DNA from: Candidatus Parcubacteria bacterium
GTDB lineage: Bacteria; Patescibacteriota; Minisyncoccia; Phycocordibacterales; UBA918
Length of the DNA: 39,999 bases
Reading direction: 5' to 3'
Assembly: GCA_021767645.1 (NCBI GenBank)
Contig: JAASSY010000003.1
Location: 1-39,999 of the forward strand
Part shown: positions 2,470 through 8,355 of the stretch, in pieces
How the letters are laid out: each line of letters starts with the position of its first letter
How positions within the stretch are numbered: position 1 is the stretch's first letter
Program-made: the position numbers and the translations under genes
The notes under the pieces: model-generated
Databases searched by the model: none
What the model was told of the DNA's origin: nothing
The model's input: the letters and a program-made list of their open reading frames with translations, nothing else

Positions 2470-2540
2470 GCGGGTGTAGTTTAGTGGTAAAACATCTGCC
2501 TTCCAAGCAGAGGTCGGGGGTTCGATTCCTCTCACCCGCA
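2470..2540 (+). tRNA. tRNA-Gly (anticodon TCC), CCA not encoded
   Basis: Acceptor GCGGGTG/CACCCGC, D-arm with TAGTGGTAA, anticodon arm TCTGC-CTTCCAA-GCAGA, T-loop GTTCGATTC. Confidence 0.97.
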
Positions 2541-2780
2541 CACATATGTTTCCGAACAAGCCCTTGGGGGCTTTTTCGTTTGAAACATAGTGTACGGGTG
2601 AAGTACGTGCCCAATGGCACGTACGTGAGGAATCGAAAGACGGAGTCGGTATACAAGACGAGCGGTCGCCGTTTTTTTAGGGTTTGTGTATGAGGTCATT
2701 ACCGCCAAACCTAGGCCGTTTGGTGGGTTTCGTATCACAAACAGAAAAGCCCCCGGCTGAGGGGCTCTCCTGTTTGTGAT
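2541..2780 (+). other. Highly structured tRNA trailer containing an inverted copy of the tRNA 3' end plus further hairpins
   Basis: 2590-2601 and 2627-2637 are reverse complements of 2532-2543 and 2521-2531; hairpins at 2553-2578, 2603-2624 and 2734-2780. Confidence 0.7.
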
Positions 2781-5659: not shown

Positions 5660-6259
5660 TTATTTAAGAATGGTATCAACGATGCCGTACTCCTTAGACT
5701 CTTCGGCACTCATGAAGAAGTCACGGTCGGTATCTTTCTCAATTTTGGCTAGTTTCTGACCAGTGGCTTTAGCGAGCATTTTGTTGAGACTATCGCGTGT
5801 CTTCAATATGTGTTTGGCGGTAATCTCAATGTCACTGGCTTGTCCTTGGGCTCCGCCCCACGGCTGGTGGATCATCACTTCGGCGTTCGGGAGGATGGAG
5901 CGTTTATCCTTCGCTCCTTGCGAGAGAATGATCGAGCCCATTGAAGCTGCCATACCAGTGCAGACGGTGGCTACGTCTGGTTTGATGTGGTTCATGGTGT
6001 CGACAATCGACAGTCCGGCGGTCACGCTACCACCCGGTGAGTTCACGTAGAGTTGGATGTCTTTCTTTGGATCTTCCGCCTCTAGGAAGAGAAGCTGTGC
6101 CACGACAAGGTTGGCCATGTGGTCTTCAATACCGCCGGTGACGAAAACAATGCGCTCCTTAAGGAGGCGCGAGTAGATGTCAAAGGCTCGCTCACCACCA
6201 TGGGTCTTTTCTACCACCATCGGTACGAGCTGCGCTTGTTCGATTTCAGTGTGTTTCAT
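5660..6259 (-). CDS. clpP: ATP-dependent Clp protease proteolytic subunit
   Basis: [28 protein letters not shown] (catalytic Ser), [13 protein letters not shown]. Confidence 0.98.
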
Positions 6260-6569: not shown

Positions 6570-6770
6570 TTAGCAGTCTTGGCTGACAGCGTAGAGTAGG
6601 TAACTTAGATTCGATATCGATGCGGTCAAAAACACAGCCCACATGACATTGAACACACCACGTTCAAACCGGTTACCATATGGTCGCAAGTCTGGTTCAA
6701 AAGCAGTGATCATAATGAACATGGTGATGGTGAACAGTAGTAGTGGCACAAGAAATGGCACATATTCCAT
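6570..6770 (-). CDS. Small two-TM membrane protein, 66 aa
   Basis: Two hydrophobic segments; SD GAGGAGG and extended -10 TGcTATACT ahead of ATG 6770. Confidence 0.65.
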   Translation of the reverse strand: MEYVPFLVPLLLFTITMFIMITAFEPDLRPYGNRFERGVFNVMWAVFLTASISNLSYLLYAVSQDC

Positions 6771-6819
6771 AGACCCCTCCTCTTTTCTAGTAGCAGTATA
6801 GCAAACATAGATGCGTGCT

Positions 6820-7074
6820 AAACAAAAGACCAACCACATTGGTCAGTCTTCTGTCGGGTTCCTCACCTAGCTCTAGGGATGAGCTAGGTTTACGGAACGG
6901 ACTACAAGTAATGAATAACGACTTTGTACTCTAGTTTATATGTATGGTTCCTCAGAAATTTCTAGGAGGGAAATTTCTTCACGGAACGGCCCAAAACAAA
7001 AGACCAACCACATTGGTCAGTCTTCTGTCGGGTTCCTCACCTAGCTCTAGGGATGAGCTAGGTTCACGGAACGG
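6820..7074. repeat. 81-bp direct repeat (6820-6900, 6994-7074; 1 mismatch) enclosing three 44-nt hairpin units (6857-6900, 6946-6989, 7031-7074)
   Basis: Direct alignment of the copies; unit = GGTTCCTCA-[8-bp stem, 7-nt loop]-TTYACGGAACGG. Confidence 0.92.
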
Positions 7075-7099
7075 CCTAAAAATATAGTCGCTACGCTCG

Positions 7100-8281
7100 T
7101 TATTTTTGGGCCTCAAGCATTTTCATGACGGCTTCGTTCTGCATGACGCTCGCGACGTACACTTGGACGCGCGCCTTGTCAGCATCCTGATACTGCTCCA
7201 TCAGCTGGTTGACTTGCTCATCGAGCTCTTTCTCGTCTGGTGTAATGTCTTCGGCTTTGGCAATTTCATTAAGAACAAGCTGTAGCTTGGCGCGCTTTTC
7301 AGCGGCGGGTGTCCACTCTTTGATCAGGTCCTCTTTCGTCTTCTTGATGTGGCTGAGGTAGTCGTCCATCTTCAGGTTGTTTCGCTTGAGATCTTCCTCC
7401 ATTTGCGCGAACATTTGGTTCATCTCAGAGTCGATGAGAATTTGCGGTACGACTATCTCGGTCGCCTCGATAATTTGATCGGTGATCGTGCCACGGTGAG
7501 CAGCAGTGGCTTCACGCTCTTTCTCCAGTTCGAGGTGCTCACGGATTTTGGCTTTGAAGTCTGCAACATCTGCAAACTGGCCTGGTTGTCCAAGCTCCTT
7601 AACGTAATCGTCGGTTAGTTCCGGAAGGGGGGCTGTTTCTGGATCGAAAGCCTCCTCCGCTTCGGCGGCTTGTTTCTTGGCCTCACTTTCTGGGGTGGGG
7701 AGTTCGGTAGCGTCAGTTGTTTCATTAGCTTTACTGTCAGATTCATCCGTTGATGCAGCTGCTTTAGCTTGCAAGCGGTCGTACGCTAGCTTGCGACGCA
7801 TGATGTCTTCAATTTGTTTATCGACGTCTTCGTCGGTTACCTCGGTTGATGCTTTCTGTTCATTCGCTCCTTTCGCCAACGCTTTGTAGTCTGGGAGCGT
7901 GACCTCAGGCATGACCGCAACCGTCAAACTAAACGCAAAGGGGTTGTCTTTGGCGAGCTTGGTGATTTGTACTTGGGGGTGACCGATCACATCGAGTTCG
8001 TGTGCGGCCACAATATGTGCGTAGTGATGAGCCAGGGCTCGTTCGGCCATCTCTGTCAATAGCGCGCTTTCGCCGATGTGTTTCTCCAGTACGTCAGCTG
8101 GTACGTGCCCCTTACGGAAGCCATCGAGTTCGACGTTTTCACCTAGTTTCTTGAGAGCTGCTTCACGTTCCTTCGCCACTTCTTCATACGGCAGTTCACC
8201 CGTGATGGTTACCTGCGATTGCTCTTGTGGTTCCACAGTGAACGCTGTTTTGTAATCAATATTGTGTGTGTGTTCAGACAT
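7100..8281 (-). CDS. tig: Trigger factor lacking a recognisable PPIase domain
   Basis: Ribosome-binding motif DGFRKGHVP; LPELTDDYVK and C-terminal chaperone domain; located upstream of clpP. Confidence 0.93.
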   Translation of the reverse strand: MSEHTHNIDYKTAFTVEPQEQSQVTITGELPYEEVAKEREAALKKLGENVELDGFRKGHVPADVLEKHIGESALLTEMAERALAHHYAHIVAAHELDVIGHPQVQITKLAKDNPFAFSLTVAVMPEVTLPDYKALAKGANEQKASTEVTDEDVDKQIEDIMRRKLAYDRLQAKAAASTDESDSKANETTDATELPTPESEAKKQAAEAEEAFDPETAPLPELTDDYVKELGQPGQFADVADFKAKIREHLELEKEREATAAHRGTITDQIIEATEIVVPQILIDSEMNQMFAQMEEDLKRNNLKMDDYLSHIKKTKEDLIKEWTPAAEKRAKLQLVLNEIAKAEDITPDEKELDEQVNQLMEQYQDADKARVQVYVASVMQNEAVMKMLEAQK

Positions 8282-8324
8282 AGTGCCCCGTAGTGTACGT
8301 ATCTCGATTAAAAATGCAAACAAT

Positions 8325-8355
8325 AACACCGCACGTGTCTGACACGCGCGGTGTT
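8325..8355 (-). terminator. Hairpin/terminator
   Basis: AACACCGCACGTGT..ACACGCGCGGTGTT downstream of the 8371-8769 gene. Confidence 0.65.

Follow-up and report, generated by a model that had tools for sequence, protein, structure and literature searches.

A two-hairpin repeat at gene boundaries in Patescibacteria and its three variant hairpin copies between tig and clpP

The three hairpin units that follow the trigger factor gene tig in the window (39,999 nucleotides of contig JAASSY010000003.1 from a Candidatus Parcubacteria bacterium) are copies, in variant form, of hp2, which is the second hairpin in a two-hairpin repeat of about 85 nt, and are not a device specific to this locus. The family is uncatalogued and consists of small folded repeats at gene ends of Patescibacteria. 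On balance we read it as a proliferating structured repeat of the REP/MITE kind, the three units being hp2 copies that came to lie on the tail of the tig mRNA; this is probable, by a modest degree, rather than settled. Patescibacteria (CPR) genomes are tiny and tightly packed, so a repeat with a conserved shape that sits exactly at gene ends needs explaining.

Results

Three hairpin units and two predicted terminators behind tig

On the minus strand, the sense strand of this locus, the pattern GTTCC-GTRAA-(8-bp stem, 7-nt loop)-TGA-GGAAC has three matches against 0.00 expected from 100 dinucleotide shuffles, spaced 85 and 89 nt apart from start to start (Table 1). An earlier note on this DNA had described three such units with fixed ends at that spacing, and they are there as described. 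Unit A has a GUUCC/GGAAC base, a GUGAA/UGA internal loop, a stem of 8–9 bp and the loop AUCCCUA. Unit B has the same ends with another stem, five of its eight pairs being changed on both sides, and the loop CCUCCUA. Unit C differs from unit A by one change (GUAAA for GUGAA) and is a recent duplicate of it. Units A and C share the 8-bp stem CCTAGCTC/GAGCTAGG, and the stem of the middle unit is GAAATTTC/GAAATTTC; the DNA loops, in the order A, B, C, read ATCCCTA, CCTCCTA and ATCCCTA, all of 7 nt and all ending in CCTA. The sequence therefore agrees with the note that the middle stem is swapped with its geometry kept and its loop still ending in CCTA. The opposed GA/GA dinucleotides, also reported there for the units, are found in A and B, but in unit C the 5' dinucleotide is AA.

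Downstream of units A and C alike comes a 15-bp hairpin with an ATG loop and then a T run, and the G.U pairs of this hairpin are possible on the minus strand only, again as had been noted. One of the readings offered at that time was a structured RNA followed by a terminator, and for its second part our scan concurs, since both hairpins with their T runs are predicted to be minus-strand intrinsic terminators. Being predicted to work on that strand only, they argue for minus-strand transcription of the units. The 291-nt stretch as a whole has a folding energy of -120.5 kcal/mol (z = -10.15), equalled by 0 of 200 shuffles.

Table 1. Features of the tig–clpP region (positions are those of the window)
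Feature	Position	Strand	Basis or remark
tig (trigger factor) gene	7100..8329	minus	ORF list, sequence; relatives matched with tblastn
hp1 (hairpin 1 of the full element)	7075..7110	minus	model R3, alignment, lower-stem covariation
Unit A, local variant of hp2	7031..7074 (pattern 7032-7072)	minus	R1, 53.6 bits
Intrinsic terminator 1 (predicted)	6993..7028	minus	15-bp hairpin, G.U pairs, AUG loop, U run; terminator scan
Unit B, hp2 without its own hp1	6946..6989 (pattern 6947-6987)	minus	R1, 49.8 bits
Unique spacer between units B and C	6901..6945	minus	sequence; covered by 163-nt read contig
Unit C, hp2	6857..6900 (pattern 6858-6898)	minus	R1, 53.6 bits
Intrinsic terminator 2 (predicted), duplicate of terminator 1	6820..6854	minus	sequence; terminator scan
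Copy 2 of the duplication	6820..6910	strand-neutral	copy 1 is 6994-7084
Small ORF, 66 aa, hydrophobic	6570..6770	minus	next gene before clpP; outside the repeat
clpP gene	5660..6259	minus (sense)	

Unit C and the second terminator are accounted for by a direct duplication of 91 nt at 96% identity, the two copies lying 174 nt apart. The earlier note had put the duplication at 81 bp and had asked for confirmation from reads; it is real, and slightly longer. In contigs that were assembled separately from the reads of a public run, the breaks fall precisely at the repeat, and the repeat piece has a depth of 27.1, about three times the 9.2–9.4 of its flanks. A 163-nt read contig with a depth of 14 joins the unique middle (unit B and the spacer) to repeat sequence on both sides. 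From these depths and joins it follows that the duplication is not an artefact of assembly GCA_021767645.1, with the qualification that the public run may be the source sample and that the support from its reads is not biologically independent. Beyond the second terminator, the small ORF has a strong Shine-Dalgarno sequence at about 6774–6784 and no tblastn match in 31 related tig–clpP loci.

The units belong to a dispersed hairpin family

Related copies were first found with looser structural scans for a GUUCC/GGAAC base and a YCCUA loop. R1, a covariance model built from nine copies, finds exactly those nine in the 605-kb genome (E <= 2.4e-6; the next best match has E 3.4). Of 100 further genomes sampled from the genus, 71 contain R1 matches, at 1–22 per genome; the genus matches number roughly 320. 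A lack of other copies, which the earlier note had named as grounds for giving up its reading, is thus not what the custom model shows. The nine copies in this genome lie between tig and clpP (three), downstream of groEL (two), downstream of ssb, upstream of rpsS, between a pair of secreted-protein genes and upstream of grpE-dnaK. The strict pattern of the window occurs nowhere else in the 605-kb genome and in 0 of 60 relatives; three metagenome-contig matches to it were rejected as chance, the inner hairpin being absent. The GTRAA/TGA form, as seen in the looser scans, has four copies in this genome and represents a local subfamily.

In an alignment of 41 hp2 copies, paired cells make up 98.8%, and both sides have changed at 10 of the 13 pairs. 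This pairing and covariation were reached by 0 of 500 shuffles, and slid controls were at most 49% paired. The main form of hp2 has a 5-bp base, a variable stem of 10 bp, a loop of 7–8 nt (most commonly CUUCCUA) and an invariant CU bulge, which is present in all 32 full copies; the family at large has a continuous helix. All three units have the defining features of hp2, namely the GUUCC/GGAAC base, a variable stem of 8–10 bp and a loop ending in CCUA, and the variant in the window carries its GURAA/UGA internal loop in place of the CU bulge.

The GA dinucleotides of this internal loop are what had suggested a kink-turn-type pair in the earlier note. Kink-turns have a three-nt bulge followed by tandem sheared G.A/A.G pairs, placed between a regular and a non-canonical stem, and on this reading a protein of the L7Ae type would bind each unit, much as such proteins bind box C/D RNAs. 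The likeness lies in units A and B, where GA dinucleotides are opposed across the internal loop next to a regular 5-bp, G+C-containing stem. However, two unpaired nt rather than three precede the GA on the 5' side, the key G is variable (unit C has A in its place), and none of the 32 full members has an internal loop at this position, their CU bulge being on the other strand only. Furthermore, no Rfam C/D or kink-turn-containing family matches the element. Bulge length, unit C and the family alignment all speak against the kink-turn, which we therefore drop as extremely improbable.

hp1 and the complete element

Oriented flanks of hp2 share about 45 conserved nt upstream, which form a first hairpin, hp1. 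At the base of hp1 is a lower stem that covaries. A first tandem G.A step leads to a helix of four to five pairs, interrupted by one bulged A, and above this helix come another tandem G.A step, two G-C pairs and the loop, which is either G-N-A or GNRA. Some copies have an ordinary Watson-Crick stem with the same geometry instead. At tig, an A-rich 5' arm leads into the invariant top GAGCG-T-AGCGAC, where a GUA triloop sits on two G-C pairs and tandem G.A pairs, and this is followed by UAU and a U-rich 3' arm. The tig stop codon TAA (7100–7102) lies within the 5' arm, 1 nt before the top. The hp1 model, R3, has its best match in the genome here (7072–7113, 52 bits, E 1.5e-7), and the tig hp1 was aligned with 21 copies from other genera. 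R2, the model of the full element, scores 33.7 bits at 7028–7116, which covers hp1 and unit A; hp1 lies directly 5' of hp2 for unit A, and units B and C are hp2 alone.

Both hairpins have kept their fold through compensatory change. In 32 copies of the full element, 88.6% of cells are paired and 21 of 29 pairs have changed on both sides, matched by 0 of 500 shuffles, and the two tandem G.A pairs are kept in 26 and 28 of the 32 copies. The covariation observed in the lower stem of hp1 was likewise reached by 0 of 500 shuffles. Selection for shape in a structured element, as the earlier note had supposed, is borne out by this record.

It should also be noted that the units first described are the second half only of a two-hairpin element, a point which had been missed, and that hp1 is the more widely conserved half. 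A mini-ORF starting from the element's ATG was considered and rejected, the frames differing between copies, and inspection of the antisense strand of the element by eye gave no convincing -35/-10 pair for an outward promoter.

The two modules differ in phylogenetic range

hp1 is order-wide but patchy, and hp2 is found within the genus. Of the 401 genomes examined in the order, 63 carry the top of hp1 (GAGCG-N-AGCGAC-TAT), and these represent 48 of 223 genera; the matches number about 125, and the reversed control gave 0. Among 150 genomes sampled across the phylum, with only some of the candidates scored, none was seen to have it. With R2, three weak but genuine relatives were recovered outside the genus, among 149 other genomes of the order, and one of these three has the same architecture with a different loop. 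The relatives that carry names are uncultured Saccharibacteria, Paceibacteria and Patescibacteria assemblies.

hp1 lies against gene boundaries

The hp1 end of the element lies flush against gene boundaries. Positions in the genus were taken from 108 hp2 matches, the best-scoring ones only and with orthologous, non-independent copies included. When the upstream ORF is on the same strand, its stop lies 24–42 nt before hp2, i.e. inside hp1, in 31 of 63 copies; when it is on the opposite strand, its start codon is 34–45 nt away in 19 of 41 copies, ten of them at exactly 35 nt. Counted together, the hp1 end is flush with a stop or start codon in about half of 104 genus cases, and distances to genes on the hp2 (3') side are broad. 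The reading frame of secF ends at a TAG within the hp1 loop, and the TAA of the element serves as the stop of several genes. The genes next to the element are varied housekeeping genes, in relatives dnaN, dnaB, rplJ/rplL, rpsP, rpsS, efp, secF, smc, recA and many others.

Outside the genus (20 loci), 17 of 21 upstream features share the strand of the hp1 motif, which begins 7–11 nt past a tRNA 3' end (five cases) or 2–10 nt past the stop of an ORF (five cases). In the order-wide copies, the lower stem of hp1 extends into the gene end, and the UAA that precedes the top is often the gene's own stop codon, as it is at tig.

These positions bear on what we rank as the main rival to a proliferating repeat, namely that hp1, together with hp2, is a gene-end RNA signal of the host, either an unconventional intrinsic terminator, perhaps one recognised by a factor, or a hairpin for processing or protecting the 3' ends of tRNAs and mRNAs. 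If so, the tig copy would take an active part in forming the 3' end of the tig transcript. The breadth of the hp1 top within the order, with no match in the reversed control, the sense position behind tRNA genes and stop codons in other genera, the doubling of its UAA as a stop codon and the covarying lower stem all suit such a signal. So does the base composition, as in 11 of 22 hp1 copies at least five of the seven bases after UAU are U, giving an A-tract/hairpin/U-tract geometry. A further terminator-like site within 110 nt downstream was found for 18 of 108 genus copies against 12 of 108 controls, which is no clear enrichment, and for this reason the element can be said to be often the only structure behind its gene. 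In relatives, moreover, ordinary terminators stand at exactly the same place after tig, and copies of the element persist at orthologous sites (see below).

Against this, roughly one in three copies in the genus either runs antisense to the genes on both sides or abuts a start codon, where a terminator would make no sense; the neighbours are in the orientations opposite/opposite in 22 and opposite/same in 16 of the 108 copies. Copies also lie between the co-transcribed genes rplJ and rplL, 24–27 nt ahead of the next start, and between two tRNA genes. At tig and groEL a canonical terminator comes downstream of the element and would be redundant. The G+C-rich stem of hp1 has two to three Watson-Crick pairs plus G.A pairs, and a signal of the host would have to be reconciled with the patchiness of hp1, including the lack of a match in the scored part of the phylum-wide sample. 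Taken together, we consider a host gene-end signal possible but rather unlikely.

Gain, loss and persistence between relatives

At orthologous sites the element is present in some species and missing from others; both orientations are found, and some copies are grouped in tandem or inverted nests. In relatives the tig–clpP synteny is kept, yet the site is occupied in one or two of 29 relatives; counted by locus, R1 has a match near clpP in two of 32 (one strong, one weak). Compact relatives have the tig stop, then a terminator, then clpP. Given a conserved synteny and a site that is rarely occupied, the array behind tig is best described as one inserted element plus the local 91-nt duplication. 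Upstream of rpsS the site is occupied in four of 30 loci, one of them weakly, and behind dnaB the element is found in both orientations. A comparison of one genome pair (G024 and G001) gave no clean empty site, the two genomes being highly diverged.

Copies at orthologous sites (upstream of rpsS; between rplJ and rplL) are still recognisable where the flanking intergenic DNA can no longer be aligned, and the differences between them are compensatory. Judged by these alignments, the persistence looks like purifying selection in place, which would favour either a host function or repeated correction of the element.

No link to known families, Y1 transposases or phages

Rfam 15 has nothing over the element, whether the whole window was searched at gathering thresholds, positions 6700–7200 at E <= 10, or 40 related loci at permissive E. 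The earlier note had not recognised the family and had named a match to Rfam or REP as grounds for giving up its reading; no such match appeared. A weak PVT1_7 match (E = 8) was set aside as chance. A T-box (RF00230) was likewise rejected, with no match in 6700–7200 of the window and with a thrS T-box elsewhere in this genome that lacks the element. One relative carries the element inside a sub-threshold T-box leader (38.8 bits, cut-off 93), between Stem I and the rest. In the literature, a search at the level of records returned no relevant report on Saccharibacteria REP, on Patescibacteria structured RNA motifs or on four 12-mers of the hp1 top, the hits being unrelated papers or coincidental primer matches.

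If the element acted as single-stranded DNA, its hairpins would fold in that strand, and a recombinase, a transposase or a protein of replication would recognise them, much as happens with REP/RAYT, IS200/IS605 ends or integron attC sites. Its ends, bulge and loop are conserved and its stem varies, as in DNA sites recognised by structure, and both orientations are in use. G.U and A.C cells are about equally frequent in the family alignment (13 vs 14), so there is no RNA-type wobble signature, and the count is uninformative on strand or RNA. DNA, too, forms very stable G-N-A triloops when C-G closes them, and its tandem sheared G.A pairs are likewise very stable. In addition, template switching at quasi-palindromes can correct one arm from the other, which could give apparently compensatory change without selection on RNA.

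Against this reading, the genome with nine copies has no match to Y1_Tnp (PF01797), and among 100 genomes of the genus the element and Y1 occur together in 48, the element without Y1 in 23, Y1 without the element in 16 and neither in 13. The table therefore shows no dependence on a Y1/HUH transposase. The co-occurrence with HUH/RAYT transposases that the earlier note had proposed to look for is thus not seen, 23 of the 71 element-bearing genomes being without Y1. An origin from IS200/IS605 ends was rejected, as R1 run with filters off against six IS loci had a best E of 0.28. Viral contigs held a single match to the hp1 pattern, so the element is not phage-borne, and in five nearly closed genomes its orientation was mixed with respect to replication direction, with the position of dnaA as a rough proxy for the origin. 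We regard action as single-stranded DNA as improbable.

A regulator of the tig–clpP locus

As six of the nine copies in this genome lie beside chaperone or protease genes (the tig/clpP, groEL and grpE-dnaK sites listed above), the array might be a local proteostasis regulator, namely a cis-acting RNA, such as a thermosensor or decoy, that controls clpP or the small ORF, with C/U-rich loops that resemble the anti-Shine-Dalgarno core and pair with the ribosome-binding site of the small ORF. The loop of unit B with its closing bases, CCCUCC, does have a complement, GGAGGG, within the Shine-Dalgarno region of this ORF. However, the element in relatives stands beside many unrelated genes and is near clpP in only two of 32 related loci. 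Between the units and the small ORF stand two terminators, and this ORF has a -10-like box of its own; copies before rplL have no Shine-Dalgarno sequence to pair with; and a related genus has a different loop. A dedicated local regulator is therefore very improbable.

Discussion

A repeat probably inserted between stop codon and terminator

Returning to the proliferating repeat that we favour, the tig–clpP array can be explained as follows. One full element, hp1 with unit A, stands between the tig stop codon and the intrinsic terminator of tig, where it would have inserted; unit A and the terminator were then duplicated, giving unit C and terminator 2; and a second, different hp2 copy, unit B, lies between the two duplicate parts. 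The family as a whole appears to behave like a small, non-autonomous repeat that spreads. Its fold, which may matter in RNA or in single-stranded DNA, may be kept because spread or recognition needs it, or because the arms of the palindrome correct each other when the DNA is copied. At tig the element would be a passively transcribed, structured mRNA tail ahead of the real terminator. The tig copy would at most modulate 3'-end stability or read-through, and there would be no dedicated regulator of tig or clpP.

Several points count against this explanation, among them the persistence of copies at orthologous sites and the lack of a tie to Y1 transposases or IS200/IS605 ends. No means of movement was found for the repeat, and 41 oriented copies showed neither target-site duplications nor terminal inverted repeats beyond the hairpins. 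Furthermore, a top of hp1 that is invariant across 48 genera and stands in sense position after tRNAs and stop codons is easier to reconcile with a gene-end signal than with junk. In its strongest version, hp1 alone, or the hp1–hp2 pair in the genus, would be a gene-end signal not described before and shared by a whole Patescibacteria order, a mini-hairpin of invariant sequence, held by G.A pairs, which a conserved factor reads on the RNA so as to end, cut or protect the 3' ends of tRNAs and mRNAs at the stop codon. We hold this bolder version to be unlikely. Were it true, hp2 would be a variable partner whose exposed loop resembles the anti-Shine-Dalgarno core or the loop of an anticodon, and the dispersed and sometimes antisense copies would be secondary spread.

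Whatever its role, the family is useful, as it combines clean, alignable covariation, modules of different range, a locked position and no recognisable transposase partner. It offers a tractable case of how small repeats spread in streamlined genomes and, possibly, of unconventional transcript 3'-end signals in CPR bacteria. The models R1, R2 and R3 can be used to mask or annotate the elements, which avoids confusion with riboswitches, small RNAs and CRISPR-like arrays.

Comparison with known systems

The kink-turn comparison, discussed with hp2 above, concerns single units; the following systems compare with the element as a whole. hp1 resembles an intrinsic terminator in its place right after tRNA genes and stop codons and, in about half of the order-wide hp1 copies, in its A-rich 5' arm, compact top and U-rich 3' arm. 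It differs in that its top is invariant in sequence and held by G.A pairs instead of a G+C-rich stem, and in that many copies of the element are antisense or between co-transcribed genes or, at tig and groEL, are themselves followed by a canonical terminator.

Rickettsia palindromic elements, the Correia elements of Neisseria and other MITEs are folded repeats of about 100 nt in or near the genes of compact genomes; such small repeats can supply gene ends and are polymorphic between relatives. The present family also supplies gene ends, with the TAG used by secF and the element's TAA serving as stops. Unlike MITEs, it lacks the combination of a terminal inverted repeat and a target-site duplication, no cognate DDE transposase was identified, and the top of hp1 is conserved at the level of the order.

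REP/BIME elements are short extragenic hairpin repeats located between a stop codon and a terminator or between two genes of the same operon. They are found in both orientations, at times grouped into tandem or inverted clusters, and their copy number varies between relatives. REP hairpins have a conserved GTAG tetranucleotide at the 5' foot. Like REP/BIME elements (REPINs) of Proteobacteria, our family comprises clustered extragenic hairpin repeats in both orientations with variable copy number. However, it has 1–22 copies per genome rather than hundreds, it has no GTAG head (the 5' feet are UUUN-GUUCC for hp2 and UAAS for hp1), and it does not depend on a RAYT/Y1 transposase. It is further distinguished by two unlike hairpins whose features are non-palindromic and specific to one strand, namely tandem G.A pairs, G-N-A/GNRA loops and an invariant CU bulge, and by having one end locked onto stop codons, start codons or tRNA 3' ends.

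Placement of the element in relatives and near chaperone and ribosomal genes

The element is a two-hairpin repeat of about 85 nt comprising a first (hp1) and a second (hp2) hairpin. In one relative, at locus L033, a full hp1-hp2 copy lies between the very short Stem I of a sub-threshold T-box and the F-box/Stem III region; no Pfam family was assigned to the 104-aa ORF downstream. The thrS T-box leader of G000, the genome of the window, scored 35.7 bits against a cut-off of 93, and its T-box core is clear. Also in G000, the spacer between rpsI and grpE/dnaK is full of hairpins (z = -12.13), with an hp2-like copy followed by an hp1-like copy, which is an unusual order.

Two relatives, G024 and G001, are identical in a stretch around one element (L024 on G024:C18 and L025 on G001:C20), although they otherwise share about 76% identity in coding DNA. 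This may reflect transfer, or a single contig common to both bins.

Many genomes of the genus carry another conserved stem-loop-like stretch upstream of rpsS, approximately 50 nt long and distinct from the element, which may be a ribosomal-protein leader. The L116 copy starts with GGGAACCUCUGUUAAGG, pairing with ...AGAGGUUCUC. In G000 the usual S10 operon order is broken between rplB and rpsS by an insertion of three ORFs whose function is not obvious.

Features considered in this section
Feature	Location	Strand	Context
Stem-loop-like stretch	L108, L112-L114, L116-L118, L120, L131, L133, L135		about 60-110 nt upstream of rpsS
Three-ORF insert	G000 contig C35:14688-15678		S10 operon
390-nt spacer	G000 contig C31:4650-5040 (locus L004 250-640)		between rpsI and small-ORF/grpE/dnaK genes
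T-box leader, sub-threshold	G000 contig C1:3720-3905 (locus L049 1501-1686)		upstream of thrS
T-box, sub-threshold, 38.8 bits	L033 1433-1683 (relative)		upstream of 104-aa ORF
Hydrophobic ORF, 66 aa	window 6570-6770	(-)	between repeat array and clpP
tRNA-Gly(UCC)	window 2470-2541		G000

The tig-clpP region and likeness to known structures

The Shine-Dalgarno sequence of the 66-aa ORF beside clpP is very strong, and the ORF also has a -10-like box; tblastn against 31 related tig-clpP loci gave no match to it. At the tig end, a 151-nt contig (depth 3) from a second, unrelated marine run is 95-99% alike window 6979-6996 and 7100-7214. It passes from the end of tig through 18 other letters to the start of unit B, the middle hp2 unit of the array, suggesting that a related strain exists in which the arrangement is simpler.

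The commonest hp2 loop, CUUCCUA (10 of the 32 copies), is one letter off the anticodon loop of the G000 tRNA-Gly(UCC), CUUCCAA, a likeness that may be coincidence. The tig terminator of a relative (L075) has a C-GAA-G type triloop at its tip, as do ordinary terminators in the genus. The invariant top of hp1, with its tandem G.A pairs and G-N-A triloop, may therefore be an extreme version of a common local terminator style.
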